This document shows, piece after piece, positions 5,921-63,032 of a stretch of 64,000 nucleotides of DNA (positions are counted from its first letter, which is position 1; every line of letters starts with the position of its first letter). The DNA is taken from positions 2,418,001-2,482,000 of the forward strand of contig JASTWF010000034.1 of NCBI GenBank assembly GCA_030390025.1, written 5' to 3'. Made by a program: the position numbers and the translations under genes. The notes under the pieces are model-generated. The model did no database searches. It was given only the letters and a program-made list of their open reading frames with translations, and was not told the DNA's origin. The DNA is from Squalus acanthias (Eukaryota).

Positions 5921-5964
5921 GGCAGTTACACATGGTTTAGATACAGAGTAATGCTCCACTCACC

Positions 5965-8785
5965 TCACTTTAACACTCTGATATACCGCACACCATTCAT
6001 TTTAACACTCTGATATATCCCTCAGTTTAATCCTCTCTTACATATCGCTAACCTCTTACTGTAACAGACCGACATACCGCACTCACCTCACATTAACACT
6101 GTGATATACCCCGCAACCCTCAATGTAACACTCTGATATAATCCACACTGCTCACTGTAACACACTGATATACCCCACAACCCTCACTCTAACACTCTAG
6201 TATACGTCACTACACTCTGATATACCCACCATCCCTCACTGAAACACTCAGATACACCCCACCCTCTTAAATACCACAAACCTCTCACTGTAACACACTG
6301 ATATATCCCACACCCCTCATTGTAACACTCTGAGATGCCAAACACCCCTCACTGTAACACACTGATGATACACCCCACACCCCTCACTGATACATTCTGA
6401 TATACCCCACACCCCTCACTGTAACACTTTTATATTCCCCATGACCCTCACTGTAACACTCTCTGATATACACCAGACCCGTCACTGTAACACACTGATA
6501 TAGCCCACACCCCTCACAGTGACAATCTGATATACCCCACACCCCTCATTGTAACACTCTGATATACCCCACACCCCAGATTGTTACACTTATATACCCG
6601 ACACCCCTCACTCTAAAACTCTGATATACTTCACACCCCTCACTGTAAAACCTTGAGATAACTCAACACTGCTCATTGTATTACTCTGATATACACCATA
6701 CATACTCATTGTAACACTCTGATGTAAAACCACTACACTGACTATAACACTCTGATATAACCCACACACCCCTCACTTTAACACACCGATGTACCCCACA
6801 CCCCTCACTGTAACACATCGATATACCCCACACCCCACATTGTCACACTCTGATATAATCCACACCCCTCACTGTAACACTCTGATATATTCCACGCTCC
6901 TCACTGTAACACTGTGTTATACACCACACCCCTCACTGTAACACTGTGATACAACCCCTCACTTTAATCCTCTCTCACATTCCCAAAACTCTCACTGTAA
7001 TAGACCGATATACCCCACTCACCTCACTTTAACACTCTGATATATCCGACACCCCTCAATGTAATACTCTGATATACCCCACACCCCTCACTCTAACACT
7101 CTGATATAATCCACACCCCTCACTGTTACACTGATATACCCCACACCCCACATTGTAACACTCTGATATACCCCACACCCCTCACTGTTACACTGATATA
7201 CCCCACACCCCTCACTGTAACACTGATATACCACACACCGCTCACTGTAACACTGATATACCCCACACCCCTCACTGTAACACTGATATCCCCCACACCC
7301 CTCACTGTAACACTGATATACCCGACACCCCTCACTCTAACACTCTGATATACTTCACACCCCTCACTGTAAAACCCTGAGATAACCCAACATTGCTCAT
7401 TGTATTACTCTGATATAAACCATACATCCTCATTGTAACACTTTGATGTAAAGCCACTCCACTGACTATAACACTCTGATATACCCCACAAACCCCTCAC
7501 ATTAAAACACCGATATACCCCACACCCCTCACTATGATATAATCCACACCCCTCACTGTAACACTGATATAAACCACAACCCTCACTGTAACACAATGAT
7601 ATTCCCCACACCCCTCACTGTAACACTGATATAAACCACAACCGTCACTGTAACACAATGATATACCCCACACCCCCCACTCTAACATTCTGGTATACCC
7701 AACACCCCTCACTGTAACACAATGATATACCCCACACCCCTCACTCTAACATTCTGGTATACCTCACTACATTCTGATGTAGCCACACCGCACACTGCAA
7801 CACTCAGACACACCCCACTCTCGTTCATACCCCATAACTCTAACTGTAACACACTGATATACCCCACACCACTCATTGTAACACTCTGATAAACCCCGTA
7901 CACCTCACTGGAACACCCTGAGATACCGAACACCCCTCACTGTAACACTCTGATGATAAATCCCACACCCCTCATTGTAACATTCTGATATAACACTCAC
8001 CCGTCACTATAATAATCTGTTATACCCCACTCCCCTCACTGTAACACTCTGAAATAAACCACACCCCTCACTGTAACACTCTGATATACCACACACCCCT
8101 CACTGTAACATTATGATGTATCCCACACCTCTCACTGTAAATCTATGATATTACACACACTCCTGACTGTAACCCTCTCCTACATACCCCAAACCTCTCA
8201 ATGTAACACACCATTATACCCCACTCCCCTCACTGTAACACTCTCTGATATACTCCATACCCCTCGTTGTAACACTCTGATATAGCCCACAACCCTCGCT
8301 GTAAAACTGTGATATACCCAACAACCATCACTTTAACACTCTCTGATACGCCACACCTCTCACTGTAACACTCTGATATACCCCACACCCCTCGCTCTAA
8401 TACTGTAATATATCCCACAGCCTTCACTGTAACACTCTGTTATACCCCACACCCCTCGCTGTAATACTGTGATATACCCCACATAACTCTCTGCAAGACA
8501 CTGATAAACCCCACACTCTTCACTGTAACACTCTGATATACCCCACACCCCTCACAGTAACACCTATATACCCCACACCCCTCATTGTAACACTCTGATA
8601 TACCCCAACCTCCTCACTGTAACACTCTGATACACCCCGCAATGTAATCCTCTCTTACATACTGATATACCCCACACCACTCACTGTAACACTGATATGC
8701 CCCACACCCCTCACTGTAACACTCTGATACACCCCTCACTGTAATCCTCTCTTACACACTGATATACCCCACACCACTCACTGTT
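5965..8785. repeat. ~30-32 bp minisatellite (ccccacacccctcactgtaacact[ct]gatata)n
   Basis: Direct tandem repetition over ~2.8 kb. Confidence 0.96.
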
Positions 8786-8994
8786 GTCACTGCCACATTA
8801 GTACCATGGGCTTTACTTATGGTCATATGTGATACTTTATCAAGCACCTTTTGTAAGGATAGGGAAAATGGGAACGTGTGAGTAGTATCAATCATACAAA
8901 CATAGAATTGGTTACCCAAGTTGTGTTGACAATTTGACGCCCCACTCTAATAACAGGTCTGGTTTCAATCAATGAATTATAAAATCAGTGATTT

Positions 8995-11419
8995 TAATCT
9001 TATTTTATTGTAATGCAAGGAGTCTTGCGAGTATGGCAGATGAATTGAAGGTGTTGAAGAACACATGGGAGTATGATATTGTTGCTATCACAGAGGCATG
9101 GTTGAGGGAGGGGCAGGACTGGCAGCTCAATATTCCGGGATATAGAATCTTCAGGCGAGACAGAGGGGGGAGTAAAAGCGGAGGGGGTGTCGCAATATTA
9201 ATCAAGGAGTCAATTACTGCTGTAAGGAGGGATTATATCTTAGTAGGTTCCTCTAAGGAGGCCATATCGGTAGAACTTAAAAACAAAAAGGGGGCAAGCA
9301 CTTTGCTAGGAGTGTACTATAGGCCCCCAAACAATCAGGGGGAGATAGAGGAAAAGATACGCTGGCAAATCTCAGAGAAGTGCAGAAATAATAGGGTAAT
9401 AATAGTAGGGGATTTCAACTTCCCCAGTATTAAGTGAGATAGTCAGAGTGTGAAAGGCTTAGAGGGTGCGGAATTCTTGAAGTTCATCAAGGAGAGCTTT
9501 TTGAGCCAGCATGTAAAAAGTCCTACAAGAGAGGGGGCGGTACTGGACCTAATTCTAGGGAATGTAGCCGGGCAAGTGGTAGAAGTGTCAGCAGCAGAGC
9601 ATTTTGGTGACAGTGACCATAATTCGGTGAGATTTAAGGTAGTCATGGAAAAGGACAAAGACGGACCGGAAATAAAGTTTCTAAATTGGGGGAAGGCCGA
9701 TTTAAATATGATATGGCAGGATCTGGCCAAAGTGGACTGGAATCACAACTTGTAGGAAAATCAGAGCAGTGGAGTCTTTCCAGAAGGAAATAGGGAGAGT
9801 ACAACGCCAACAATTTCCAGTAAAGATCAAGGGTGGGACCAACAAGCCCAGGGAAACCTGGATGTCAAGAGCTATACAAGAATGGATTAGGAAAAAAAGT
9901 GAGGCTTTTGGCAGATGCAAAGGACTAAAAACAACGGAAGCCCTAAATGAGTGTAGAAAGTGCAGGGGGGTACTTAAAAAATGAAATCAGGAGAGCGAAG
10001 AGGGGGCCTAAAAAACACTGGCGGGCAAAGTAAAGGAAAATCCCAAGGTGCTTTATAAGTATATTAAGGGCAAGAGGATAACCAGGGAAAGAGTAGGGCC
10101 CATTAGGGACCAAAGTGGCAATCTGTGTGTAGAGCCGGAAGCTGTAGGTGAGGTTCTAAATGAATATTGTGCATCTGTGTTCACTATGGAATGACGATTT
10201 AGGCATAGAAATCAGGCAGGGGGATATTGAGATACTTGAACAAATTACTATTGAGAGGGAGGAGGTACTAGCGGTTTTAGCGGGCCTAAAAGCGGATAAA
10301 TCCCCAGGCCCAGACGAGATGTATCCCAAGCTGCTGTGTGATGCAAGGGAGGAGACTGCAGGGGCTCTGAAACAAATTTTCAGAAACTCTCTGGTCACAG
10401 GGGATGTGCCAGATGACTGGAGAACAGCTAAAGTAGTACCATTATTCAAGAAGGGTGGTATGGATAAACCAGGGAATTACAGATCAGTTAGCCTAAAATA
10501 GGGTAGGGAAATTATTGGAAAACATTCTGAGGGACAGAATTAGTCTCCACTTGGAGAGGCAAGGATTAATCAATGTTAGTCAGCATGTCTTTGTCAGGGG
10601 GAGATCATGTCTGACCAATTTGATTGAACTATTCGAGGCCCTGACTAGGTGTGTGGGTGCGGGTAGTGCAGTTGATGTAGTCTACATGGACTTCAGTAAG
10701 GCTTTTGACAATGTCACACATGGGAGACTGGTCAAGAACGTAAGAGACCACGGGATCCAGGGCAATTTGGCACGTTGGATCCAAAATTGGCTTAGTGGTA
10801 GGAGGCAGAGGGTATGGTCGAAGAATGTTTTTGTGACTGGAAGCCTGTGTCCAGTGCTGTACCGCAGGGATCGGTGCTGGGTCCTTTGCTGTTTGTAGTG
10901 TACATTAATGATTAGATTTGAATGTAGGCGGTATGATCAGCAAGTTCGCAGATGACACGAATATTTTTGGAGTGGTAAATAGCGAGGAGGGAACCTCAGG
11001 CTACAGGACGAAATAGGCGGGATGGTTAGATGGGCAGAACAGTGGCACATGGAATTTAACCCTGCAAAATGTGAGGTGATGCATTTTGGGAGGACTAACA
11101 AGGCAAGAGAATATACATGAATGTTAGGACCCTAGGAAGGACAGAGGATCAGATGGACCTTGTTGTGCATGTACATAGATCCCTGAAGGCAGCAGGACAG
11201 GTGGTTAAAAAGGCATATGGAATACTTGCATTCATTAGCCGTGGCACAGAGTATACGAGTAGGGAGGTTATGATGGATCTGTACAAAAAGCTGGTTACGC
11301 CACAGCTGGAATACTGTGTGCAGTTCTGGTCACCACACTATGGGAAGGATGTGATTGCATTGGAGAGTTTGCAGAGGAGATGCACCACGTTGTTACCTGG
11401 GCTGGAGCGCTTCAGCTAT
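8995..11419 (+). mobile_element. CR1 LINE ORF2 (APE endonuclease + RT), decayed; 5' part, interrupted by LTR element
   Basis: YCNARSL, AITEAW, YYRPP, GDFNFP, SDHN, KSPGPD, DFSKAFD, FADD-like motifs with stops and frameshifts. Confidence 0.95.
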
Positions 11420-13103
11420 TGTAAGGGTTTGCGTGCGTGTCTCTCAGCCTGTGAGATTCGCGCGGCTCTGTGCAGCCTGTGTGTCAGTGCGGGTTTAGGC
11501 CTTGTTGCATGTTCTGGTCACCAGCCAGTCTGGGAACACTAGACACACCTGTGAGTGGTTCGAATCACTCGCCCTTACGGTTCTAGACACTGGACTTAGA
11601 TGCGAGAGCAGTAATGGAGATGAAACTCATGTAGACTCGGTTGAATGGTACGAAATGGAAAAATCTTTATTGCATAATATTTAAGATTACGAAATACATG
11701 TCATAAGCACAGATTAATGACAGTACAATCTTACACGCAGTTATGTAGCTAATTCTAGGGAAACGAGGAACGAACGACACACCGTAAATGGGGGCACACA
11801 TTACAAGTATCCTTAATACTTAAACCCTCCCCTATCAATATCTGTCCTAGCTAGATTCGTAGGATTCGAGACTCATGCTCACCACTCGTGATAACTCGGA
11901 GAAATTCCGAATAGCTGATCGGATGTTTTCACCGCAGCACCCACGTGTCGATCAGGGGGTCTCCTGGCCCCACTTGTTTACTTGCTTCTGCTCCGGCTAG
12001 CAGGCTGGAACGTCTGTTGTTATGAAGATCTGTGTTGGTTGGTTTCACGTACCAGTCAACACTTAAGAGAATAATCTCTCGGTGTCCGTCATGAGGATCT
12101 GCCCTGATGGGTTTCACAGATCAGTCAATATCTCAAAGAAGAATCTTCCGGCGTCCGTTCTTTAAAGTTCAAAGAAGTCTTCCTGGCAAGGAGAAATGTC
12201 TATTCGACCTACAGGCGCGGCCGGGGCTTACTGACCGTGGCGCTAAGTATGGTCTTCGTCTCTTCTCATCTCATCTCATCTCTTCTCGGGCCTTTGGTTC
12301 CGATGCCGGTTACCAACACAGGTCTTCGTGACACGACACGAGGTAGATCCGAACGGATCACAAAGTTCAACAGTCTTTTAAAAGAGACACCAGGCAAACA
12401 GGAACAAGACGGCGAGTCAAGAACACAGGAGCAGCCACGAGGATGAACACCAGCAAGATAAGAGGATAAGAGAGAGATGGACGGTTGGAGCTTGTAATTA
12501 TAGTACAAAATCTTCCGTTTCCCGCCCAACCTTAATGTCTTTTCCTTTTGTTAGGGTTTGGCGCTCAAATGTCTTGTATAGGTGATCTCCGGTTTTAATG
12601 GGTTGCGGGGCTACTCGTGAATGTCTGAGTACCTGTAAATTTTTCTCCCATTGTTAAATCGGTCGGTGTTCTCCCTGGAGGGGTTTTGGGGCTTCCAAGT
12701 GTTTTCTGTAACTACCCGCTAACGGCTCTCTCATCGTAGAGTCGTTGGGATTTTACATATTAATGTCTTTGGATGGGCCCTTGATTACTTGGTACAATAG
12801 CCTTTATTCGTACCCGGGAGACCGATTTCAGTATCTATGTGTATACTGCAAACCCATGATGTCTCGTGTATTATCTTCAATGTGCTGAATCTTAATCGAT
12901 CTTGCACAAATGTTTATTGGAACGCCATCTTGTCTGTCTGTCGAAAAGTCTAGAATGTTCCGCCACGAGGTGCGGCGGCCATTTTACAGGCTGCTTGTGT
13001 CCACTTTGAAAACCTGACAGCATTCTGCTGAAATAAAGCTGTTTGAACGAAACTATGTGTTTTCTCCTTATTTATAAAATCGCGATATATTGCAAATTCT
13101 ACA
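11420..13103 (-). repeat. 3' LTR (1684 bp)
   Basis: Direct repeat of 19170-20853; minus-strand AATAAA at 11666-11671. Confidence 0.97.
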
Positions 13104-13115
13104 GTCCCTCCTGTT
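13104..13115 (-). other. Polypurine tract
   Basis: AACAGGAGGGAC immediately before the TGT of the 3' LTR. Confidence 0.8.
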
Positions 13116-13552
13116 GATGCGAATAACTCCGCTTATCGTATCAAAAATATTGTGGTGAGCAATATTATCTCGATTTTCTCCGAATCCAGAAAATTAATCC
13201 CATAACTTAACCTAGCTAGGGTCTTTGTGTCGTCCTTATTTCCCAAGAAAATTACATTTTATAGCACCGTAGGCATTATTTGCCTTTAAACTTACACCAC
13301 TTGTTTTCCTTCCAGGCGTAACCAGGCCGATGCCTCTCGTATCACCTGTATATTCACATTTTTTATTCAGTGAAAAGAAAAACAAAACCCAAAACCAAAC
13401 AATCATTTTTAACTACAACACCATCACCAAAATAATCAACACCAACTCTTAAAACATGTCGAGTTCCCAACGTATTTACAGTCTTTAAAAATCATGATCG
13501 AGTACAAACTTCCGCGGCGCACGTGGCGAGCGGGATTGACGCCATTTTCCGA

Positions 13553-15904
13553 TTACACGGTGCTTTCATCGTGCACGCGCACGTAACGTTCTCGCCACTC
13601 TCCCGTGTTTTCATGCTTGGTGAGGCGTTTATCTCTTTTACAATGGACGACCAATAGGTACACTACAATGAAAACTTGGCATACGACTAAAATGTGGGAG
13701 GCTATTCTGATCCATGAAGGCACTTCAATATTGGTGAACAGATTCCACCACGGTGGAATTACTATATCCAGAATGTCTGTCCCTATTTCGACAGTTTTCT
13801 GTTCTAATGTGTAAAAATGTTTCTGTGACACCGCGACGGCTTTTAAAAGCTTGGTGAGGTGTTCAGGGAGAGGGGGAATGATGTATCCGAAATGCGCGAC
13901 GAATCGCTGCAAGTCGGTGAAATTCTCTTTTACTGTGAGATGAACAGTGGATGGTTCAGGGATTGGGACAATTCGCTGTTGTGCTACTTGAACTTCCGCC
14001 CTGGGTTTGAAACAGAAACTGCTGTCACTCACCGGACACCGGCTACGGTTTCCATGCTGGTAGTGTTGCGCTGCAGTGGTAACACAATATGTTCCACCCC
14101 CGATGTATGCTACCTGCGGAGGCACATGATCTTGTGCCATTGCCTCCATGGTGCAATTCATGGACTTGGCGCCAGCCGTTCTGAACCCGCACTGTGGTGT
14201 TAAAAAGGCATTCAAGTGCTGGGGGCACAGTATTATGTGTGCTCCCCTGCCACGACAACCAGAGAGATCTGTACCTGTCATCGTTTGCTCCCAGCGGATG
14301 ACGTAGGGTGGAACCGCTGCATAGCGAATGTGGGCTCCCCCCTGAATGACACCAATGTTCTCTACCCGATACACCGGGGCGGGCTTTGCTGTGTCGCCCA
14401 AAACCGGCATACGTAAAACTATACCCATAATGGTATGGTTTGATCGTCCACAGTCCACGGGGACTGGGTATGCTTCTGAAGCTAGCCTGAGCTGGCACGG
14501 GCTTAATGCGTTCTGAAAAGGGTGGAGCGCCCGCAGGTGTTTGTTACTTATCCAGGACGGGACCAAACCTTGTTTTAAATCCTCCAAATTACTGCGGCCC
14601 TCGCCCAGTAACCACGCCCCGTAAAGCACGCACACCTCGTTCTGCGCAGCTTGATCGGATGCATTCCGATCTTCCCTAATCAGGGCATTTACCGTTCTCG
14701 CGTGTTTCTCTAGTTCAGCTATTATTTCTTTTAAATGGAGAGTCATGGCTTGGTCCTCGTGTAAACCCGACCCAACCACTTTATTTTCATCTGTGAGAAT
14801 GTCTTTTAATTGCGTTTTTAAGCCATTAATCTGGGTCTGCAGCTCCACACTGTCTAGAGCGTTGACCACAGATGTACCTGTGTTGAAAGCAGTGAACGCG
14901 TCGTTCACAACACCCCTTCTTTGCCTCCCTACTTGATCCGAAACTTCATGTGGTGCGGTGTACAAACTTGTTTTATCAATTTCCGCAAAATCGAATTCGT
15001 AAAATTGTCTGAACATCTTGGTCAACAGGACCTGATACAACTGTTCCGTCTTTTTGGGGCACCACTCTGTTAACCGCACCTCGGTGAGATTTAAAATCAC
15101 CGAGGCCACCGCGTAATGTACTCCCTGAAATAGTATCTGGTCTGTGGGGACCAGTACCAAACCATTCCCGGGTCCCTTACTAGTTTTAGGGCACCCTTCT
15201 TCCTTAGCTAGAACCACCGGAATCGTGGGCGGGGCTTTGCGTGGGCGCGTAATGAGTTCAGTGGCATTTACCGGGATCGAAGAGTATGGGGCTCCGCACC
15301 CCCTGGTGCTTGCATCCCACCTCATCCCCTGTCCGTTATCCTGCCATTGATTAATGAAAAATATGGAGATGCCTTTGGGGCAAGCGTACTTTGACCCCCA
15401 CATGCATACATACATTCCCTCATCCGGTTCCCACCATTTGTCCCAACAGACTCTCACTTGTCCGTTTGTCCCCGTAATTGTCCGATGGGTATTATTACCC
15501 AGTCGTTCCCACTCGACCGAAGAGTTCCTCATAGTTTTGCTCAGCTTTCGCAGCCACCACCATCGGCTCAATGGGACATTCCCACTACAAGTCAAACAAA
15601 TCCGTTTGCCGACGGTGACGCTGATCCTGGGTGCGATGATCCTTACTTTGGGGCACATTAAAGAAGTCTCTTGGTAGGCAAACCCCGATGTGCTGGAATA
15701 CTCAGTCGAGTTCGTTCCCAGCCATCCTGGCCACCTTCCCTTGTGGAAATAGGTGGTGGTCTCCTCAGCCTCCCGTTTTCCGGTCCCATCCACCGCGATG
15801 GGGGCCGTGTCCCCGGAGCATCCAAACACCACGACATCCTTGGTGCGGCCTCGATAGGCCAATCCACATCCGATTGCCGCGAGCAATACTAGAATTCGTT
15901 CCAT
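13553..15904 (-). CDS. env: Envelope/class I fusion glycoprotein with N-terminal Ig-like domain (783 aa from MERIL; ORF open from 16063)
   Basis: Signal peptide MERILVLLAAIGCGLA; furin site RQRR (14915-14926); fusion peptide plus heptad repeat; Cys-rich region; C-terminal TM (ILVVCQVFIVVYLLVV); tail with YVRV. Confidence 0.88.
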   Translation of the reverse strand: MERILVLLAAIGCGLAYRGRTKDVVVFGCSGDTAPIAVDGTGKREAEETTTYFHKGRWPGWLGTNSTEYSSTSGFAYQETSLMCPKVRIIAPRISVTVGKRICLTCSGNVPLSRWWWLRKLSKTMRNSSVEWERLGNNTHRTITGTNGQVRVCWDKWWEPDEGMYVCMWGSKYACPKGISIFFINQWQDNGQGMRWDASTRGCGAPYSSIPVNATELITRPRKAPPTIPVVLAKEEGCPKTSKGPGNGLVLVPTDQILFQGVHYAVASVILNLTEVRLTEWCPKKTEQLYQVLLTKMFRQFYEFDFAEIDKTSLYTAPHEVSDQVGRQRRGVVNDAFTAFNTGTSVVNALDSVELQTQINGLKTQLKDILTDENKVVGSGLHEDQAMTLHLKEIIAELEKHARTVNALIREDRNASDQAAQNEVCVLYGAWLLGEGRSNLEDLKQGLVPSWISNKHLRALHPFQNALSPCQLRLASEAYPVPVDCGRSNHTIMGIVLRMPVLGDTAKPAPVYRVENIGVIQGGAHIRYAAVPPYVIRWEQTMTGTDLSGCRGRGAHIILCPQHLNAFLTPQCGFRTAGAKSMNCTMEAMAQDHVPPQVAYIGGGTYCVTTAAQHYQHGNRSRCPVSDSSFCFKPRAEVQVAQQRIVPIPEPSTVHLTVKENFTDLQRFVAHFGYIIPPLPEHLTKLLKAVAVSQKHFYTLEQKTVEIGTDILDIVIPPWWNLFTNIEVPSWIRIASHILVVCQVFIVVYLLVVHCKRDKRLTKHENTGEWRERYVRVHDESTV

Positions 15905-16201
15905 CCTTCCTTGGTTCCTGTGATCAGATAGAATGAGGTAGCCAGCCTCGCAAGAGTCTCTGGCTTTTGTGAAGGGTGAGCGGGTCCCCTGACCTCGCCT
16001 CACGTAAACTTCAACGTTCGCTGAATAAACTTTAACTAAACCTATCTCTAAAGCTCCCATCATTTTACCATTTTCTGTTAAAATTAAACTACAAACTTAA
16101 CCTTATTTAAAACTATAAACTTATAACCTTAAACTATAAACTTAGAAACCTATCCTAAACTTATTACTGTACAGCGCCGCCCGTTCTCAGGGCGGCCCCC
16201 T

Positions 16202-17356
16202 TTAAATTCTGAGAAGGCTGCTGCGAGCTCTTCCCGACGGTGGGAGGGCTCTGACCTTTTCCTCTGATCTGCCGCAGCCTGTTGCTGCACTGACCCCTTC
16301 CTCTGATCTGCCGCAGCCTGTTGCTGCTGCGATGGGGCCGGGCTGTATCTGGGCTGCCTTAACCTTGAGCCTACGCCTTGGGACAGTCTGGGGCCATACC
16401 CACATCTTCCTGGGCTGGGGTTCTCTACTTGACCTACGGGGAGTTGTCGGGGGCAGGAATCCCATGACCGACGTACCGGGTTCCGAGACTTCCACCGGGA
16501 CGACCTGTGGTTCCACCACAGTCGCTGGCTCCGCCTCCGCTGACTCCGCCTCCCTAACCTCGGGACTTGCAGCTTGTGGCTCCGCCCTGCTCGGCCCAGC
16601 AGGCGGCCCTTCACTCGCGATCCCTGCCTCCCCCGAGGGCGGGACGTTCAAAGCGGGCGGCTCGGGCTCGGAGGTTCTCACCGTCACTCCCTGTGGTCTC
16701 ACAGCGGCTGGCTCCGCCTCCCCTAGCTCCTCCCTCCTGTGTTCGGGACCTGCAGCCTCTGTGTCCACCCTGTGCGGATCTCCATCTGCAGCCCGTGTCC
16801 TCCCTATACCTAAAATGGGGGCGACCCTTTCGTTCCCCAAATCCCCCTCGTCTTCATCACTATCCTCATCTGACTCGAGTTCCCGGAATTCTCCCTCATC
16901 TGACTCCCAACCCCACAAAAATGCTTCATGATCTTCCAGGATGTCTCCTCCCCTGATGCAAGCTGCTTTGCCTGCCTGTGTGCCTTGTGGTCCTACCTGG
17001 GGCTGCGCTTCCCCACTCGCGGGGTTTACCCCTGTGGTTTTCCCTTGCGCACCTGGCTTGTACAGTTTGCACTGGTTTACATCCTCATACTCCCGGCTTT
17101 TGGCTACCCTGTAGGCTGCTTTTATCTCACTAAGCTGCGCTTCTAGCCTGAGCACGTCTAACTTTCCCATTGATCGGGCGTTCTCCTCCCGCAGGGCCTG
17201 CTCTCTAAGCTGCCCTTCCAGCCCATCTATTTTCCCTATTAAGCGGGCGTTCTCCTCCCGCAAGGCCTGCTCTTTTAACCTGGCCTCCTCACCGCAGACC
17301 CCTTCCTGTGCGTGTCTTTTAAAAGGACACAGGTAGGCAGGCTGCGTGGGCTCTAG
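16202..17356 (-). CDS. ORF2: coiled-coil/acidic/Pro-rich protein in frame with gag (probable readthrough extension, 384 codons)
   Basis: No stop from 17356 to 16205; same frame as gag; no protease, RT, RNase H or integrase motifs. Confidence 0.7.
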   Translation of the reverse strand, partial: LEPTQPAYLCPFKRHAQEGVCGEEARLKEQALREENARLIGKIDGLEGQLREQALREENARSMGKLDVLRLEAQLSEIKAAYRVAKSREYEDVNQCKLYKPGAQGKTTGVNPASGEAQPQVGPQGTQAGKAACIRGGDILEDHEAFLWGWESDEGEFRELESDEDSDEDEGDLGNERVAPILGIGRTRAADGDPHRVDTEAAGPEHRREELGEAEPAAVRPQGVTVRTSEPEPPALNVPPSGEAGIASEGPPAGPSRAEPQAASPEVREAESAEAEPATVVEPQVVPVEVSEPGTSVMGFLPPTTPRRSSREPQPRKMWVWPQTVPRRRLKVKAAQIQPGPIAAATGCGRSEEGVSAATGCGRSEEKVRALPPSGRARSSLLRI

Positions 17357-19165
17357 TCATTGGGTACTATTAGACGGTCCTGCGGCACCTACGGGGCCGG
17401 TAGCAACCGCCACCTTTCCATGTGCGCTCAATAATTTGCGCATGGCTCCCAACACTACTTCGAGGTCGTCGGGAGGGGTGGGTGCACTAGCTTCCCTAGC
17501 AGGGACAGGCGTCTGGGCTCGGGCTGCGGGAATTTTATCCCTGGAATCCTTCCAAGGGTTCCTGCAGTTCTTGCGCCAGTGCCCTGTCTTCCCACACCCG
17601 TAACAAGCATTACTTGCCTGCGGGGCGCGATTACCCTCCTGATGCCACTCCCTTTGATACGGGGCTGCGGGTCGTACCTCATGTACTTTTCCCTTAAGGG
17701 GACGTGTTCCCATACCCCTTATATTGCGATATCCTAACGTGAGTCGATTCAAGACCGACTCTTCCGTAATGTTGGGGTCATTGGGATCAAACCATGCTTT
17801 TGCCTGCTCTCTGACGGCTGGTAAACTGTTGGCTACTATGCACCTAAGCCAATGATTTAAACCGGCGCCGTCCATATCGTCGCGCTCTAGCGCACCTAGA
17901 CAGCTGCGCTGATATACTGGCCACAGCCTGTCGGCAAAAACCTTCGGGGGTTCTCCCTCCATCTGCACTGTCTGTCCCAAACTAGCAAACGGACCTTCAT
18001 CGTCCGCCCCCAACACTTCCAGGACCTCATTCTTTAATGCCTCATAAGTCTTGGTTCCCCTCTTGCTCTCGCCCGAGAGACACTGAAGGATTGAACTGCC
18101 TAACGAAAACAACAGCATTTTTGCTGTTTCCCCATCATCGCAGCCGTTAATGGCTGCGGTTTGCTCAACTTCTCTGAAATGTACGGAAGGGTCGTCTAAC
18201 TCGGTCAGCTTCCGTACATGATTTATCATAACTCTCAGCTGGTGTGAGCTGTGAGGCAACACAAGCTGGCCGAGGAGATCCCCTGGTTCCTCCCCACCGT
18301 TTCTGTTTGGGCCCCTTTTTATACCCGTTACTGGATACAACGGTCCCTTTTCCACTTCTTTCTCAATGGGCTCTTTCGTTTCTTCCACTACTTCCTCCCT
18401 TACCCAGGTTTCCGAATAGCTGGGTGGCGCGGAGGGCGCAGTGGCTAATACTTCCTCTGCTTTACTTGGTGGGGACTTCTGAAACTCCTCTTTTACTAGC
18501 GGCTGGTGTGCTGACGGACTGATAAGGCACACCATGCCGTGCGCTTTGTTCACGGCCTTTTTGAGGTGCTCTATCTCCTTTTGGCAGGCGCTATGATCGG
18601 CTCCCTGAAACTTATCCTCAAGGGCCAAATTATATGCCGCCCTAACCCCCGTTAAGCTCTCTTCCTGAGTTCTTATCTGGGCAGCTTGGCGGGCACATCG
18701 TTCCTTTAATCTGCCCTCATTTAACTTTGCCTCAGTGACCTGGCACTCGAGGTAATCTATCCTTGTTTTATGTTGACTGGAGATTTCCTGGCGTTCTTGG
18801 TGCAGCGCACTTAAATTCCTAATGAGCAATTCCCCTCCAGAGACCTTCTCATCCATTTCTCCCTCTAAATGACTGATTCGAGCTGTTAGCGCTGTAATGA
18901 CCTGGTTTGAAATCTGGACCTGCCTTTTGTAACACATTAGCCAGACTGCTTTCTCGATTGTCTTTTTATGTTCCTTACTATCTGTCCACCTTTCGGCTGC
19001 CTCTAGTGGACTCTTATCCGCTAACAATTCACTTATCCATTTCTTAGTTAGATTAACCTTTCCGAACACATAATCTGCTATCTTTTCCTTCATAACATTT
19101 CGTACAGTCACACCAAAGTCTAACACACTACCCTCTCGCTGCCAGTGTCCTGCCGCGGTCGCCAT
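17357..19165 (-). CDS. gag: Gag polyprotein (602 aa)
   Basis: First ORF after 5' LTR; coiled-coil N-terminal half, PSAPPSY late-domain-like motif, capsid-like QMEGEPPKVFADRL, CCHC knuckle CYGCGKTGHWRKNC. Confidence 0.93.
   Translation of the reverse strand: MATAAGHWQREGSVLDFGVTVRNVMKEKIADYVFGKVNLTKKWISELLADKSPLEAAERWTDSKEHKKTIEKAVWLMCYKRQVQISNQVITALTARISHLEGEMDEKVSGGELLIRNLSALHQERQEISSQHKTRIDYLECQVTEAKLNEGRLKERCARQAAQIRTQEESLTGVRAAYNLALEDKFQGADHSACQKEIEHLKKAVNKAHGMVCLISPSAHQPLVKEEFQKSPPSKAEEVLATAPSAPPSYSETWVREEVVEETKEPIEKEVEKGPLYPVTGIKRGPNRNGGEEPGDLLGQLVLPHSSHQLRVMINHVRKLTELDDPSVHFREVEQTAAINGCDDGETAKMLLFSLGSSILQCLSGESKRGTKTYEALKNEVLEVLGADDEGPFASLGQTVQMEGEPPKVFADRLWPVYQRSCLGALERDDMDGAGLNHWLRCIVANSLPAVREQAKAWFDPNDPNITEESVLNRLTLGYRNIRGMGTRPLKGKVHEVRPAAPYQREWHQEGNRAPQASNACYGCGKTGHWRKNCRNPWKDSRDKIPAARAQTPVPAREASAPTPPDDLEVVLGAMRKLLSAHGKVAVATGPVGAAGPSNSTQ
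19147..19164 (-). promoter_or_regulatory. Primer binding site (tRNA-Arg type)
   Basis: TGGCGACCGCGGCAGGAC, 5 nt after the 5' LTR; complementary to ...GTCCTGCCGCGGTCGCCA, the vertebrate tRNA-Arg(TCG) 3' end as I recall it. Confidence 0.85.
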
Positions 19166-19169
19166 TTTC

Positions 19170-20853
19170 TGTAAGGGTTTGCGTGCGTGTCTCTCAGCCT
19201 GTGAGATTCGCGCGGCTCTGTGCAGCCTGTGTGTCAGTGCGGGTTTAGGCCTTGTTGCCTGTTCTGGTCTCCAGCCAGTCTGGGAACACTAGACACACCT
19301 GTGAGTGGTTCGAATCACTCGCCCTTACGGTTCTAGACACTGGACTTAGATGCGAGAGCAGTAATGGAGATGAAACTCATGTAGACTCGGTTGAATGGTA
19401 CGAAATGGAAAAATCTTTATTGCATAATATTTAAGATTACGAAATACATGTCATAAGCACAGATTAATGACAGTACAATCTTACACGCAGTTATGTAGCT
19501 AATTCTAGGGAAACGAGGAACGAACGACACACCGTAAATGGGGGCACACATTACAAGTATCCTTAATACTTAAACCCTCCCCTATCAATATCTGTCCTAG
19601 CTAGATTCGTAGGATTCGAGACTCATGCTCACCACTCGTGATAACTCGGAGAAATTCCGAATAGCTGATCGGATGTTTTCACCGCAGCACCCACGTGTCG
19701 ATCAGGGGGTCTCCTGGCCCCACTTGTTTACTTGCTTCTGCTCCGGCTAGCAGGCTGGAACGTCTGTTGTTATGAAGATCTGTGTTGGTTGGTTTCACGT
19801 ACCAGTCAACACTTAAGAGAATAATCTCTCGGTGTCCGTCATGAGGATCTGCCCTGATGGGTTTCACAGATCAGTCAATATCTCAAAGAAGAATCTTCCG
19901 GGGTCCGTTCTTTAAAGTTCAAAGAAGTCTTCCTGGCAAGGAGAAATGTCTATTCGACCTACAGGCGCGGTCAGGGCTTACTGACCGTGGCGCTAAGTAT
20001 GGTCTTCGTCTCTTCTCATCTCATCTCATCTCTTCTCGGGCCTTTGGTTCCGATGCCGGTTACCAACACAGGTCTTCGTGACACGACACGAGGTAGATCC
20101 GAACGGATCACAAAGTTCAACAGTCTTTTAAAAGAGACACCAGGCAAACAGGAACAAGACGGCGAGTCAAGAACACAGGAGCAGCCACGAGGATGAACAC
20201 CAGCAAGATAAGAGGATAAGAGAGAGATGGACGGTTGGAGCTTGTAATTATAGTACAAAATCTTCCGTTTCCCGCCCAACCTTAATGTCTTTTCCTTTTG
20301 TTAGGGTTTGGCGCTCAAATGTCTTGTATAGGTGATCTCCGGTTTTAATGGGTTGCGGGGCTACTCGTGAATGTCTGAGTACCTGTTAATTTTTCTCCCA
20401 TTGTTAAATCGGTCGGTGTTCTCCCTGGAGGGGTTTTGGGGCTTCCAAGTGTTTTCTGTAACTACCCGCTAACGGCTCTCTCATCGTAGAGTCGTTGGGA
20501 TTTTACATATTAATGTCTTTGGATGGGCCCTTGATTACTTGGTACAATAGCCTTTATTCGTACCCGGGAGACCGATTTCAGTATCTATGTGTATACTGCA
20601 AACCCATGATGTCTCGTGTATTATCTTCAATGTGCTGAATCTTAATCGATCTTGCACAAATGTTTATTGGAACGCCATCTTGTCTGTCTGTCGAAAAGTC
20701 TAGAATGTTCCGCCACGAGGTGCGGCGGCCATTTTACAGGCTGCTTGTGTCCACTTTGAAAACCTGACAGCATTCTGCTGAAATAAAGCTGTTTGAACGA
20801 AACTATGTGTTTTCTCCTTATTTATAAAATCGCGATATATTGCGAATTCTACA
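19170..20853 (-). repeat. 5' LTR (1684 bp)
   Basis: Direct repeat of 11420-13103, followed by PBS and gag. Confidence 0.97.
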
Positions 20854-21272
20854 CTATGAAGAGAGACTGGACAGGCTGGGGTTGTTTTCCTTAGAGCAGA
20901 GAAGGCTGAAGGGGGACCTGATAAAGGTGTACATAATTATGAGGGGCGTAGATAAGGTAGAGAGAAATGAACTTTTCCTCTAAGTAGAGTGGTCTATAAC
21001 CAGGGGGCATAGTTTCAAGGTAAGGGGCAGGACGTTTAGAGGGGATTTGAGGAAAACTTCTGGAATCTGGAACTCACTGCCTGAAAGGGTGGTAGAGACA
21101 GGAACCCTCACAACATTCAAGAAGAATTTAGATGAGCACTTGAAACGCCATAGCATACAAGGCTATGTACCATTTGCTGGAAAATGGGGTTAGAATAGAC
21201 AGGGCTTGATGACCGGCGCGGACACCTTGGGCCGAAGGGCCTTTTTCTGTGCTGTATAACTCTATGACTTTA
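20854..21272 (+). mobile_element. CR1 LINE 3' end (continuation of 8995-11419)
   Basis: Resumes YEERLDRLGLFSLEQRRL; ends ttctgtgctgtataactctatgact. Confidence 0.93.
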
Positions 21273-21890: not shown

Positions 21891-22197
21891 ATGATTAAAT
21901 ACGTGTAATAATGATTTAAAAAGCGTCATCATGTTTTATTAATGGTCATAATGATTTATAAAGGGTTAGAAAATATCTGTAAAGTGGTGTAATTATTTTA
22001 AAGCATTTTAATGGGTTTTAATGATTAATAAATTCCTGGTGCCGGCTCTCCTCCAACCTGTGCTGGGCTGCTCGATCTCCTGTGGGCCGGGCCGGGCCAG
22101 GCTGCTCCGCCACGCCGCCGGCTCTCACAGGAACCGGGACTCCAGATGCCGCCCTCCAGACACTCACCTCCTGCCGCCAGGGAAAGGCCCCGAGTGA

Positions 22198-22712
22198 CAG
22201 CCGCCATCTTTGTCCGTATCCCCAGAGCCACGATTTTTGTGCGGGGCCCCAGAGTGGCCATCTGTGTGCGTGACCCCAGAGCCGCAATCTTTGTGCGGGG
22301 CACAGGTGCCGCCATTATTGTGCGTGGCGCCAGAGCCGCCATTTAGGTGCAGGTCCCCTGAGCCGGCATCTTTCTCCGGGTCCCCAGAACCGCCATCTTT
22401 GTGCGGGGCGCGGGTGCCGCTATCATTGTATGGGTCGCCGTGGCCGCCATATTTGTGCTGGGCTCCAGTGCCTCCATTTTTGTCTGGTGCTTCAGAGCAG
22501 CCATCTTTGTGCGGAGCCCCAGAGCCGCTATCTTTGTGCGGAGACCCAGAGCCGCCATCTTTGTGCGGGGCCCCGGAGCCGCCATTATTGTGCGTGTCCC
22601 CGGACCTGCCATTTTAGTGCTGGACCACCAGAGGCGACATCTTGCTGCTGTGCGCGGGGGCCGCCATCTTTGTGCTGGGCCCCAGAGCCGCCATCTTTGT
22701 GCGGGGCGCCAC
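22198..22712. repeat. 27-bp GC-rich minisatellite (gccgccatctttgtgcggggccccaga)n, ~19 units
   Basis: gccgccat-type motif recurs every 27 nt (e.g. 22524, 22551, 22578). Confidence 0.93.
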
Positions 22713-37651: not shown

Positions 37652-37990
37652 AAGAAAGGAAGAAAGAATTGAATTGATACGGCGCTTTTCACGATCTTGG
37701 GATGTGCTTTCAAGTCAATGACGTCCTTCCTTTTGAAGTGAAGTCACTGTTGTACTGTCGGAAACTTGGCAGCCAATTTGAGCACAGCAAGCTCCCACAA
37801 ATAGCAATGTGATAATGACCAGATAATCTGCTTTAATGATGTTGATTGAGATAAATATTAGCCAGAACACCGGGGTTAACTCTGCTGCTCTTCTTCAATA
37901 TAATTCCATGGGATCTTTTACGTCCAACTTATAGAACAGACAGTTCTAACGTCTCATCTGAGACATGGCACCGCTGACAGTGCAGTGCTC
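37652..37990 (-). mobile_element. Deu-like SINE, reverse orientation
   Basis: Reverse complement of ~30230-30570. Confidence 0.78.
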
Positions 37991-38298
37991 CCTCAGTACT
38001 GACCCTCTGACAGTGCAGTGCTCCCTCAGGACTGCCCCTCTGACAGTGCACTGCTCCATCAGTACTGCCCCTCTGACAGTGATGCGCTCCCTCAGTACTG
38101 CCCCTCTGACAGAGATGCGCTCCCTCAGTACTGCCCCTCTGACAGTGCAGTGCTCCCTCAGTACTGCCCCTCTGACAGTGATGCGCTCCCTCAGTACTGC
38201 CCCTCTGACAGTGCAGTGCTCCCTCAGTACTGCCCCGCTGACAGAGATGCACTCCCTCAGTACTGCACCTCCAACAATGCAGCACTTTCTCAGTACTG
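37974..38298. repeat. 33-bp minisatellite (ctgacagtgcagtgctccctcagtactgcccct)n, ~10 units
   Basis: Direct tandem repetition. Confidence 0.95.
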
Positions 38299-38301
38299 GC
38301 T

Positions 38302-41300
38302 TGAGTGCAGTTTGTCATGGAGTGCAGCTTGGAACCGACTGTTAAGGTGCGAGTTTGGTGAGTGAGGGAGTTCAGGGAGGAATGTGTTCCTTTCTTTTTC
38401 TCTCTTTGTCAGCTTCCAAGACCCGGTCAGTATTTCTGCAGTCCAGTCGTTAAAGTAAAAGTAAGGTCTCGAGTTTAGAGCAAGTAGTGCTTAAAGGGAA
38501 GTCAGGTCCCTAGTGTATTTAATATTCTTTAATTTAAAGGGAGTAAATTATGGGTAGCACATGGCAGGGCAGCTCGGCAGCGTGGAGTGCTCCTACTGTG
38601 CTATGTTGGAAGTCAGGGACACTTTAGGTGTCCAGGGCGGACACATGTGCAGGAAGTGTCTCCAGCTGCAGCTACGCGAAATCCGCGTTTCGGAGCTGGA
38701 GCTGCGACTGGAGTCACTGTGGAGCATCCGCGAAGCTGAGATCTTCGTGGATAGAACATTTAACGAGGTGGTCACACCGCAGGTAAAGAGTGCACGGGCA
38801 GATAGGAAATAGATGACCCCCAGACAGTGTAAAAGAACTAGGAAGGCAATGCAGGAGTCCCCTGGGTCCATCTCCCTCTCCAACAGATTTTCCGTTTTGG
38901 ATACTGATGGGGGAGATGGTTTCTCAGGGGAATGCAGCAAGAGCCATGTCCGTGGCACTACGAATGGCTCAGCTGTACAGGAGGGGGCGGGGTAAAGAGT
39001 GGGAGAGCAATAGTGACAGGGGATTCTATCGTAAGGGGAACAGATAGATGTTTCTGTGGCTGCAGACGTGACTCCAGGATGGTATGTTGCCTCCCTGGTG
39101 CCAGGTTCAAGGATGTCACTGAACGGCTGCATTGTATTCTGAAGGGGGAGGGCGAACTGTCAGAGGTCGTAATCCACATTGGTACCAACGACATGGGTAG
39201 AAAGAGGGTTGAGGTCCTTCAACAAGAATTTAGGGAGCTAGGTAGCAGATTAAAAAGCAGGACCTCAAAGGTTGTAATCTCTGTATTACTCCCGGTGCCA
39301 CTTGCTAGTGAGTATAGGAATAGGAGGATAGAGCAGATGAATGAGTGGCTAAAGAGTTGGTGCAGGAGGGAGGGCTTTAGTTTCCTGGATCACTGGGTCT
39401 GCTTCTGGGGAAGGTGGGACCTGGACAAGTCGGACGGGATGCACCTCAACCGGAACGGGACCAACATCCTTGCGGGGAGATTTGCTAGTACTGTTGAGGC
39501 GGGGGGGGGCGGGTGTAATCTAACTTGGCAGAGGGATGGGATACGGAGTGGAGCTGTAGTAGGGGGTGATGCACAGCCAAATATAGAGGAAAAAACAAGT
39601 CAGCCTGGAAGTCAGAGCAAATATGTATCGGCACACGGCTGTATGGCATGGCTGGTGACATTTATTTTAATTCAAGGAGTCTTGCGAGTAAGGCAGATGA
39701 ATTGAAGGTGTTGATGAAAACAAGGGAGTATGATATTGTTGCTATCACAGAGACATGGTTGAGGGAGGGGCAGGACTGGTAGCTCAATATTCCGAGGTAT
39801 AGAACCTTCAGGCGCGACAGAGGTGGGTGTAAAAGCGGAGGGCGTGTCGCAATATTAATCAAGGAGACAATTACTGCTTTAACGAGGGATGATATCTTAG
39901 CAGGTTCCTCTAAGGAGGCCATATCGGTAGAACTTAAAAACAAAAAGTGGGCAAGCTCTTTGCTGGGAGTGTACTGTTGGGCCGCAAACAGTCAGGGGGA
40001 GATAGAGGAAAAGATATGTAGGCAAATCTCACAGAAGTGTCGAAATAATAGTTTAATAATAGTAGGGGATTTCAACTTCCCCAATATTAAGTGAGATAGT
40101 CGGAGTGTGAAAGGCTTAGAGGGTGCGGAATTCTTAAAGTGCATCCAGAAGAGCGTTTTGAGCCAGCATGTAGAATGTTCTACCAGACAGGGAGCGGTTC
40201 TGGACCTAATTCGAGGGAATGTAGCTGAGCAACTGGTGGAAGTGTCATTAGGAGAGCATTTTGGTGACAGTGACCATAATTCGTTGAGATTCAAGGTAGT
40301 CATGGAAAAGCAGAAAAATGGACCGGAAATAAAGCTTCTAAATTGGGGGAAGGCCGATTTTAATATGATAAGGCAGGATCAGGCCAAAGTGGACTGGGAT
40401 CAGCTACTTGTAGGAAAATCCACATCAGAGCAGTGGGAGTCTTTCACAAAGTAAATAGAGAGAGTATAACGCCAACATGTTCCCGTAAAGGTCAAAGGTG
40501 GGACCAACAACCCCAGGGAACCCTGGATGTCAAGTGATATACAAGAATGGATTCGGAAAAAAGAGAGGTTTTTGGCAGATACAAAGGAGTAAAAACAGTG
40601 GAAGCCCTAGTGGAGTATAGGAAGTGCACGGGGGTACTTAAAAAGAAATTAGGAAAGTGAAGAGGGGGTATGAAAAAAAACACTGGCGGGTAAAAGAAAG
40701 GAAAATCCCAAGCTGTTTTATAAGTATATTAAGGGCAAGAGGATAACCAGGGAACGAGTAGGGCCTATTACTAGATTGCAGTTTGTCACGGAGTGCAGCT
40801 TGGAACAGAGTGTTAAGCTGCGAGTTTGGTGAGTGAGGGAGTAAATCTTAAAGATTAAACTCTTATTTTTATAAATTCTAGTCTTGTGTGCTTGCAATTA
40901 GCATTTAAATTTACTGTTTCAAGTTTTAAGTTTCTTCCAGGCTTGGGCAGGGCTAAGCAAGCTCTGTGCTGTAGAGCAGGTGAGAGTAATTAATTAATTA
41001 ACTGGTCTAATCTGGTTCTGTAACTGCCAGAGAGATCACTTATTTAAATCTCAGCAGTATAAATAAGCGAGACTAGAGTGCAGTTTGTCACGGAGTGCAG
41101 ATTGGAACAGAGTGTTCAGCTGCGAGTTTGGTGAGTGAGGGAGTGAGGGAGGGAGGTGTTCCTCACTTTTTCAATATTTGTCAGCTTCCTGGTGCGGCGG
41201 CGGACCTGCATGAGGCGAGGTGGCGGCAGAGGGTTTAAAAGGCTCCAGAGACCAGGTAAGGCGGGACCAGTCTCCGAACTCGGAGGGAGGGAGGGAGAGA

Positions 41301-56559: not shown

Positions 56560-56815
56560 TTTAATCACTCCACCATTGGTGGCCATGCCTTCAGCTGCCT
56601 GGGCCCTAAGCTCTGGAATTCTGTCCGTAAACTTCTCTGCCTCTCTCTCCTCCATCAAGACGCTCCTTAAAAATTACCTCTTTGACCAAGCTTTTGGCTA
56701 TCTGCCCAAATATCTCATGCGGCTCGATGTCAAATGTTGTTTGATACACTCCTGTGAAGCGCCTTGGGACGTTTTACTACGTTAAAGGCGCTTTATAAAT
56801 ATAAGTTGTTGTGTT
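56560..56815 (+). mobile_element. L2 LINE 3' end
   Basis: gccttcagctgcctgggccctaagctctggaatt...gtgaagcgccttgggacg...gctttataaatataagttgttg. Confidence 0.75.
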
Positions 56816-56864
56816 TTGCTTATTTCCTATTTAAGAATTAACAATTAACTTTACGCCATTGTTT

Positions 56865-59800: not shown

Positions 59801-59865
59801 TAACCATTACCTAACAGTTTTACCCTGTGTATTGGTTATTATACCCAATTTAACAATTAACTAAC
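56865..59865. repeat. 50/52-bp AT-rich satellite, ~58 copies
   Basis: ccaatttaacaattaact[gt]gacagttttaccctgtgtattggttatcatac tandem array. Confidence 0.98.
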
Positions 59866-60107
59866 TTTATGCTCTTGTGTATTATTTATCAAGTCAAATT
59901 TAAATAACTATAGCTTTCGTTTCCCCTCTATGCTTAATATGTCAATTTGTACAAATAATTGCAACGGTCTGAATAAAATAATAAATAAGACCAGGAGTAG
60001 GTCCTGTGCTGCAACCTGTTTATTAGTTTTCATGTCCAATTTATCAATCAACAGTGCCTTTTTTCCTCGCTGTATTGGTTACCACTTCCATTTTAAAACC
60101 ACCTGAA

Positions 60108-62064: not shown

Positions 62065-62935
62065 GAGTGTTTGACACTTACATGTCGAGAGATCTTTATT
62101 CTGTATTCATCCCATGCTGTACCCGAGCTGGTTGTGCTTCATTGGGTAGTGTCAAGGGAGCTGTACGCTGCACATGCTGTATTAGAGGGAACTTTGCATG
62201 TCACGCGCGCTGTACCTGCTCTGCGAGTGTTTGAGTGGACAGTGTAAAGGGAGCTTTACTCTGTATCGATCTGTCTAACCGGTGCTATACCTGCCCTTGG
62301 ACTGTTTGATTGGGCATTGTAAAGGGAGCTTTATTCTGTATCTCTCTATCTAACCCGTGCTGTACCTGCTCTGCGAGTGTTTGAGTGGGCAGTGCAGAGG
62401 AAGGTTTAGTCTGTATCTCTCTATCCAAACCGTGCTGTACCTGCCCTTGGACTGTTTGTTTGGGCAGTGTAAAGGAAGCTTTATTCTGAATCTAACCCGT
62501 GCTATACCTGCCCTTGGACTGTTTGTTTGGGCAGTGTAAAGGGAGCTTTACTCTGAATCTAACCCGTGCTATACCTGCCCTTGGACTGTTTGATTGGGCA
62601 GTGTAAAGGGAGCTTTACTCTGTATCTCTCTATCTAACCGGTGCTATACCTGCCCTTGGACTATTTGATTGGGCATTGTAAAGGGAGCTTTACCATGTAT
62701 CTCTCTATCTAACCCGTGCAATACCTGCCCTTGGACTGTTTGATTAGGCAGTGTAAAGGGAGCTTTACTCTATATCTCTCTCTCTAACCCATACTGTACC
62801 TGCCCTTGGACTGTTTGATTGGACAGTGTAAAGGGAGCTTCACTCTGTATCTCTCTATCTAACCGGTGCTATAACTGCCCTTGGACTGTTTGATTGGGCA
62901 GTGTAAAGGGAGCTTTACTCTGTGTATAACTCATG
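62065..62935. repeat. 67/75-bp minisatellite (tgtaaagggagctttactctgtatct..aacccgtgctatacctgcccttggactgtttgattgggcag)n
   Basis: Direct tandem repetition; related fragments at ~1590, ~1817 and ~5930. Confidence 0.92.
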
Positions 62936-63032
62936 CTACATGCAGGAAGATTGTGACAAATGGAATTCAATCCGGAGAAGTGTGAGGTAATGCATTTGGG
63001 GAGGGCTAACAAGTCAACGGATCCTGCACTGA

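Follow-up and report, generated by a model that had tools for sequence, protein, structure and literature searches.

A probable pol-replaced, non-autonomous form of a young snakehead-retrovirus-like endogenous retrovirus family in Squalus acanthias

Endogenous retroviruses (ERVs) whose centre has been swapped for a piece of another retroelement are known from cattle (ERVK[2-1-LTR] D versus C), mouse (ETn versus MusD) and koala (recKoRV versus KoRV-A) (PMC10924933), and co-packaging with template switching has been proposed for cattle ERVK (PMC10924933) and canid ERV-Fc (PMC6407205). In this study, a window of 64,000 nucleotides from Squalus acanthias (assembly GCA_030390025.1, contig JASTWF010000034.1, positions 2,418,001 to 2,482,000 of the forward strand) was analyzed, in which a provirus-like element with gag and env and without pol occupies positions 11420 to 20853. 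A preliminary description had regarded it as a non-autonomous, satellite-virus-like element borrowing Pol from a helper family. Very likely, the element is non-autonomous and belongs to a large, very young ERV family resembling the snakehead retrovirus (SnRV), of which it is a form with pol replaced. It is like cattle C/D, ETn/MusD and recKoRV in its swapped centre, in its presumed mobilisation in trans by its own clade and in pervasive recombination; the same replacement occurs in many independent integrations, competent siblings are present in the genome, the inserted piece is derived from a retroelement, and loss of the reading frames was not seen. Cattle D-types lack an intact frame (PMC10924933), whereas here the whole gag and env are open and the swapped piece is in frame and coding. 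Swapped-centre parasitism as such is known, and the unusual feature is that the capsid and envelope genes are kept intact.

When the genome was searched with the interior of the element, 33 matches were scored, of which seven were full length and about 20 ended at window position 17082. Eight loci ending at this position were extended. Seven were gag-pol-env proviruses between long terminal repeats (LTRs) of the same family, and in the eighth, pol and env lie next to a pol-less copy in inverted orientation. The pol-bearing siblings are up to 98.5% identical to the window element across LTR and gag, and their Pol (about 1500 amino acids) contains protease, reverse transcriptase (RT), tether, RNase H and integrase according to Pfam. 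The same Pfam library, for which the sibling Pol served as positive control for all four enzymes, gave a weak zinc knuckle as its sole match in the three element proteins, and none of the models for protease, RT, RNase H or integrase. Compared with a pol-bearing copy, the window element is without 3614 bp and carries 242 foreign bp instead, a difference of 1124 codons; everything in the pol-less element except these 242 bp is common to the helper. The helper is the element's own family, represented by its gag-pol-env siblings, and not the separate family that had been proposed.

The middle frame (positions 16202-17356, minus strand, as are all coding features of the element; 384 amino acids) had been taken for a novel gene, ORF2. 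It is composed of the first 11 codons of pol (17325..17356), 80 foreign codons forming an in-frame cassette (17083..17324) and a Pol tail of about 280 residues (16202..17082), as aligned to pol-bearing copies, and it holds no catalytic domain. It is not a new gene but what is left of pol with a captured cassette. The earlier statement that motifs of the Pol enzymes are missing stands, with the correction that the first 11 and last 280 or so residues of Pol are present. The tail takes in the last part of the integrase C-terminal domain and, behind integrase, an extension rich in Pro/Glu/Ala/Gly, and is open in both forms.

The first methionine of the middle frame is residue 63, and the frame continues in phase after the gag stop. 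This stop is UGA followed by CUAG in 17/17 pol-bearing and 38/41 pol-less copies, a leaky context that permits readthrough. In pol-bearing copies, pol can be reached solely by readthrough of the stop or by splicing. Three base differences within the 11-codon pol start are nearly fixed between pol-less and pol-bearing copies and are the only such positions between stop and junction. A stem-loop 3' of the stop involving these diagnostic bases was ruled out (z -0.88; 40 of 200 shuffles folded equally well).

The left junction, queried as an exact 26-mer, occurs 944 times in the genome, on both strands, and the intact gag-pol junction 1285 times (reversed controls 0 in both cases); the exact junction of LTR and primer site was counted 2412 times and the window's exact right junction 89 times. 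All 30 loci retrieved by a cassette search hold the cassette in the same context. The first 100 LTR-primer-site junctions on contig C1 comprised 24 pol-less copies, 35 pol-bearing copies and 41 assigned to neither form; when 20 of these 41 were inspected, 18 had the pol start, which does not imply an intact pol, and two had a divergent cassette. From this sampling, the pol-less share of the family is roughly 30-40%. About a thousand proviruses, each integrated separately, have the pol-less layout.

A sample of 40 pol-less copies was drawn from the 49 listed on C1 (the first 42 minus two tandem neighbours). Both LTRs were present in 30 of them, with a divergence of 0-0.67% (median 0.09%) and ten identical pairs; the family is large and very young. 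These 30 copies carry their own target duplications, of 4 bp in 24 cases, 3 bp in two and 5 bp in one, with none in three, and the flanks and duplications differ among copies. LTR length varies between copies (1369-1741 bp) while the pairs within a copy are identical, which requires reverse transcription. The earlier conclusion that the element is non-autonomous, is no decayed one-off deletion and borrowed its Pol is thus upheld by the 944 exact junctions and the 24 4-bp duplications. The copy count and the search for pol-bearing elements with the same LTRs and primer site that had been suggested there both gave positive results.

We also considered that the layout might have arisen without retroviral copying, through an error of assembly, repeated post-integration deletion, segmental duplication or gene conversion among resident proviruses. 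Some pol-less copies do stand in tandem with shared LTRs (the three of 30 without a duplication), and gene conversion could contribute to mixing. However, a single junction with foreign DNA at 944 places on both strands, flanks and duplications that differ, and LTR pairs whose members match within a copy while their length varies between copies make this explanation extremely improbable. The junction is also bridged in independent sequencing runs: contigs from three of four runs, with three organism codes (one of which may be the host species), span the left junction with 1-3 differences in 211-256 nt, and the fourth run has depth across the cassette. Two of the runs also hold the pol-bearing junction (pol start). 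These contigs attest presence, not expression; among 11 runs, no RNA data set holding the sequence was listed. Tandem proviruses with shared LTRs were seen at loci L102, L103 and L114, and at L043-L044 a pol-less copy is inverted against the pol of another copy.

When trees were drawn for gag (55 copies) and env (56 copies), pol status changed 14 times in each, against shuffled means of 15.1 and 14.9, respectively. Since pol-less and pol-bearing copies are intermingled in these trees, the two forms must recombine constantly. The fixation index (Fst) between them was 0.00-0.07 in all windows, including beside the junction, and nearly all informative sites segregate in both groups (gag 455/467, tail 253/264, env 278/285) to within a few bases of the junction. 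The nearest gag to that of the window copy belongs to a pol-bearing copy, 0.55% apart. The trees are ladders in which position tracks LTR age (rho 0.82, 39 copies), and cassette distances track gag distances (Mantel 0.76, 35 copies). By analogy with cattle ERVK and canid ERV-Fc, the simplest cause of the recombination would be co-packaging with template switching. We regard the pol-less form as an alternative allele of pol in a recombining ERV family, not as a separate satellite virus. In canid CfERV-Fc1(a), too, one env-deletion allele is found on varied backgrounds, which has been attributed to template switching between RNAs packaged together; there env was lost in a few proviruses, while here pol was lost in about a thousand (PMC6407205). 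Throughout the history of the family, the pol-less form stays in the minority, in contrast to the cattle form, which displaces its helper (PMC10924933).

The alternative favoured by the preliminary description, an independent satellite-virus-like lineage with its own capsid and envelope, a novel second gene and Pol from a different helper family, is largely refuted and now appears highly unlikely. A satellite virus encodes its own capsid, needs a helper for replication and is largely unrelated to it in sequence. Open gag and env under purifying selection, the foreign cassette and persistence through the family history and in several organisms would suit such a lineage, and open gag and env without enzymes are present here as far as sequence can tell. 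In sequence, however, all but 242 bp is common to the helper. Further points against such a lineage are that pol-bearing siblings are up to 98.5% identical over LTR and gag, that no separate clade is seen in the trees, where gag and env form one pool with those of pol-bearing copies, and that ORF2 consists mostly of Pol remains.

On the preferred explanation, the pol-less RNA would be packaged together with sibling RNA and sibling Gag-Pol, and the sibling enzymes would reverse transcribe and integrate it, as the missing enzymes, the LTR identity and the duplications suggest. Template switching would exchange everything outside the cassette, and the cassette would act as an alternative pol allele carried through time by the family. 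A less firm proposal is that the pol-less RNA itself is translated into Gag and Env, which could give it an edge in packaging, and that UGA-CUAG readthrough yields a Gag-cassette-tail protein that replaces Gag-Pol. It is plausible that the pol-less form makes and uses its own particle and envelope.

A match to the cassette lies in the Gag coiled coil of an older, related ERV family (78% over 58 nt). At the protein level the match reached z 6.9-9.6 with 0/500 shuffles (two of three retrieved copies scored) and was nearly gapless for the one-unit variant; the match to the element's own Gag is weak. The older family has at least 40 copies that are 95-97% alike (30 pattern matches) and is a relative of the cassette donor, not the donor itself. 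A decayed gag of this family lies directly beside a pol-bearing copy (L031:900-2470, minus strand; C1:25854799-25855249).

The cassette has an internal 75-nt duplication and occurs in lengths of 167, 233, 236, 242, 311 and 395 bp, all six in frame. It was in frame at 65/65 measured loci (of 76; two counted twice). The remaining 11 loci are the youngest group (LTR divergence 0-0.12%) and have a longer foreign stretch with a second right-hand junction, which is in frame in 10/11 copies. No stop codon was found inside the cassette in 40 copies. In the same 40 copies, the ratio of nonsynonymous to synonymous substitution rates (omega) was 0.52 (likelihood ratio 8.5 versus omega 1), the lowest of the six frames (others 0.65-2.56). 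Mild purifying selection on the cassette, which unlike that on gag and env could not come from the helper, is suggested but not established by this value, because the test ignores recombination and is based on about 66 changes. Synonymous diversity was low in the cassette, at 0.032, against a range of 0.024-0.158 across nine windows of env and of 0.073-0.166 across seven of gag. Loci L143 and L149 have divergent cassettes with 88-90% identity to that of the window, another number of 75-nt units, an open frame and UGA-CUGG at the stop. We raise tentatively, as a rather unlikely case, that the cassette is a selected gene and an exchangeable replacement of pol, whose readthrough product, made up of Gag, a second and foreign Gag coiled coil and the Pol tail, would aid the entry of its RNA into particles or shift the balance of Gag and Gag-Pol.

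Gag and env were similarly constrained in both forms. Omega in 20 pol-less copies was 0.10 in part of env and 0.45 in the capsid half of Gag, and in 17 pol-bearing copies the corresponding values were 0.11 and 0.42; a counting method agreed for gag and env. The dN/dS analysis proposed earlier gave low values for gag and env, but the same picture in pol-bearing copies weakens the main inference of the preliminary description. Since gag and env are common to the helper, low omega is no proof that pol-less copies need their own proteins. Among 5 gag and 7 env stop sites, none was common to more than one pol-less copy (38-39 copies). Two env frameshifts that appeared to be shared were rejected, because their positions differ by 7-8 nt and the copies that carry them fall in separate parts of the tree, as were shared tail frameshifts, which were compensated pairs also found in pol-bearing copies or summing to a multiple of three. 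Of the 40 pol-less copies, 27 had an open gag, 36 an open middle frame and 22 an open env.

It is quite possible, though we lean the other way, that the pol-less form is a pure passenger. This agrees with the core explanation and differs on the use of own proteins: the pol-less RNA would supply no protein that matters, the frames would be open owing to the youth of the copies and to refreshment by recombination, and the phase of the cassette would be kept for RNA-level reasons, e.g. stability. The almost wholly shared variation of gag and env, the unconstrained Pol tail and the low synonymous diversity of the cassette, which could mean RNA-level constraint, are consistent with a passenger, and cattle D-type elements have spread without functional genes (PMC10924933). 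On the other hand, the absence of any gag or env stop common to pol-less copies, the six in-frame cassette lengths with the in-frame second right junction, and the cassette omega argue against a pure passenger. So do the alleles present in at least two pol-less and zero pol-bearing copies, whose ratio of nonsynonymous to synonymous changes was 0.78 in gag and 0.57 in env versus 2.5 in the tail.

Several results weigh against the preferred explanation, in which the pol-less form is a recombining, pol-replaced sibling that may use its own proteins. The helper may be the source of the purifying selection seen on gag and env, and the alleles confined to pol-less copies are uncertain because the pol-bearing sample comprised just 17 copies out of more than 1285. 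The Pol tail showed no amino-acid constraint (omega 1.13), and its tree retains some grouping by pol status (11 changes versus 14.4, P 0.02). All three frames were open in 14/40 pol-less and 4/10 pol-bearing C1 copies, which is about equal, and a tandem pair of pol-less copies (L053 and L054) is without most of env. Finally, searches did not reveal the exact cassette donor, giving no exact continuation in the genome and no protein match among lengths 211-672.

The two LTRs of the window element (5' LTR 19170..20853; 3' LTR 11420..13103; both on the minus strand, TG...CA) are 1684 bp each and differ by 7 substitutions and no indels in pairwise comparison. They are flanked by a CTAT target-site duplication (11416..11419 and 20854..20857) within a long interspersed nuclear element (LINE). 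This duplication is real, because the two LINE flanks align end to end with a second LINE copy (46773-46852 and 46853-46935). The primer binding site (19147..19164, minus strand; 18 nt, 5-nt spacer from the LTR) complements a tRNA-Arg(UCG) encoded in the same genome, for which 470 pattern matches with at most one mismatch were found; two of two retrieved matches were called tRNA-Arg. Genes for this primer tRNA form long tandem arrays at C26:38996704-42219716 with a period of about 1623 bp, and the array copy scanned is 92 nt. The polypurine tract lies at about 13104..13113 (minus strand). On the LTRs, the CTAT duplication, the presence of a primer site and purine tract, and the three uninterrupted frames filling the interior, the preliminary description was accurate. 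The rest of the window appears to be mostly LINE fragments, with tandem repeat arrays at 1-1000, 5950-8800, 22146-22677, 37902-38330, 56700-59950 and 62116-62999 (periods about 8-14, 32, 27, 33, 52 and 75 nt). An Rfam scan of the window gave zero matches.

Gag (17357..19165, minus strand; 602 amino acids from the first ATG, ORF 17357-19288) has an N-terminal coiled coil, a capsid-like middle and one CCHC knuckle. Its first in-frame ATG (19163-19165), in a strong context, overlaps the start of the primer site and was in frame with the gag stop in 43/49 copies examined; the next methionine follows 23 codons later. With almost no leader between primer site and gag, the packaging signal may lie in the long LTR.

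Env (13553..15904, minus strand; 783 amino acids from the ATG at 15904, ORF 13553-16096) has a signal peptide, an RQRR site at residues 327-330 and a transmembrane helix at about 730-757. When its alignment-based model (34 sequences; predicted local distance difference test (pLDDT) 60, the first 232 residues without a resolved fold) was searched with Foldseek, the F protein of human parainfluenza virus 3 was matched with an E-value of 6e-11, and the walleye virus Env was also matched, indicating a paramyxovirus/pneumovirus F-type fusion fold. A single-sequence fold (pLDDT 33) was set aside in favour of this model. No F likeness was found by sequence in Pfam or PDB searches; the fold search alone detects it. 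A weak immunoglobulin (Ig)-like domain was noted in the N-terminal part (15179-15904, minus strand), which is annotated in the bamboo shark relative P0009 and weak in P0033; it is possibly a captured receptor-binding module on the F-type fusion protein. Env relatives were found in a skate and sharks (58-78%) and in frogs (about 20%), in keeping with a cartilaginous fish as host.

SnRV-like ERVs, including CmiERV lineage I, are known from elephant shark, a cartilaginous fish (PMC4422223, PMC4977317, PMC12193657). Over 47 core positions, the helper RT agreed with the printed rows of PMC7947760 in 36 positions for SnRV, 27 for walleye dermal sarcoma virus (WDSV), 25 for Loki-Aro and 23 for HERV-L (counted by eye), and its RNase H motifs were likewise closest to SnRV. 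SnRV may also be primed by a tRNA-Arg. In an RT tree of 14 rows without SnRV, the helper and the 'NYNRIN-like' Pols of frog and coelacanth formed one group (90/90), to which the four gamma/epsilon-like rows did not belong. The nearest database Pols were one relative at 89% and frog and coelacanth proteins at 43-45%, and no relatives of the element were found in viral contigs. By its Pol motifs, the family would be snakehead-retrovirus-like. It differs from described SnRV-like ERVs in its thousands of very young copies and its pol-less partner form, and from SnRV in having no accessory frames of at least 80 amino acids behind env and an Env tail of about 25 amino acids versus 136.

Membership in the lokiretroviruses was first suggested by the F-type Env fold. 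They also share tether plus RNase H and the N-terminal coiled coil of Gag (PMC7947760); however, tether plus RNase H is common to all retroviruses and hence not specific, and the F-type Env is not exclusive to them, as foamy Env shares the fold (PMC11468914). The RT comparison then spoke against membership, which was ruled out by motifs read by eye (LPQGF and QYVDD in the helper versus PFGY and IYVDD in the loki rows). None of three cartilaginous fish genomes was positive for lokiretroviruses (PMC7947760). The zebrafish lokiretrovirus derivatives Bik-1 and Bik-2, which are gag-only, are pol-less and recently active with an open gag, as is the form found here. They lack env, and the zebrafish reference yielded no autonomous partner for them (10.1101/2024.03.25.586437), in contrast to the abundant pol-bearing partner seen here. 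The pol-deleted chicken provirus EAV-HP also still inserts, and the described copy is in addition without parts of gag and env (PMC3554524). The literature searched describes neither this family nor an element in which a coding cassette takes the place of pol while gag and env stay whole; Repbase/Dfam and subscription journals lay outside the search and may annotate it.

This SnRV-like family is very large and very young, its F-type envelope bears an Ig-like domain, and its hosts belong to a group that has been described as having few ERVs; the elephant shark has 100-700 ERV insertions (PMC4977317). Models for cattle ERVK predict that helpers are displaced by defective forms, whereas here the two forms interleave along one time-ordered tree. 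With about a thousand pol-less and more pol-bearing proviruses that can be dated by their LTRs, the coexistence of helper and parasite, recombination in the germline and the cis-preference of Gag and Env can be tested from sequence alone. If the cassette were a selected gene, the family would represent a stable two-component retrovirus population of pol-bearing and pol-less forms, maintained through its history and across host species, in contrast to the usual parasite that kills its helper.

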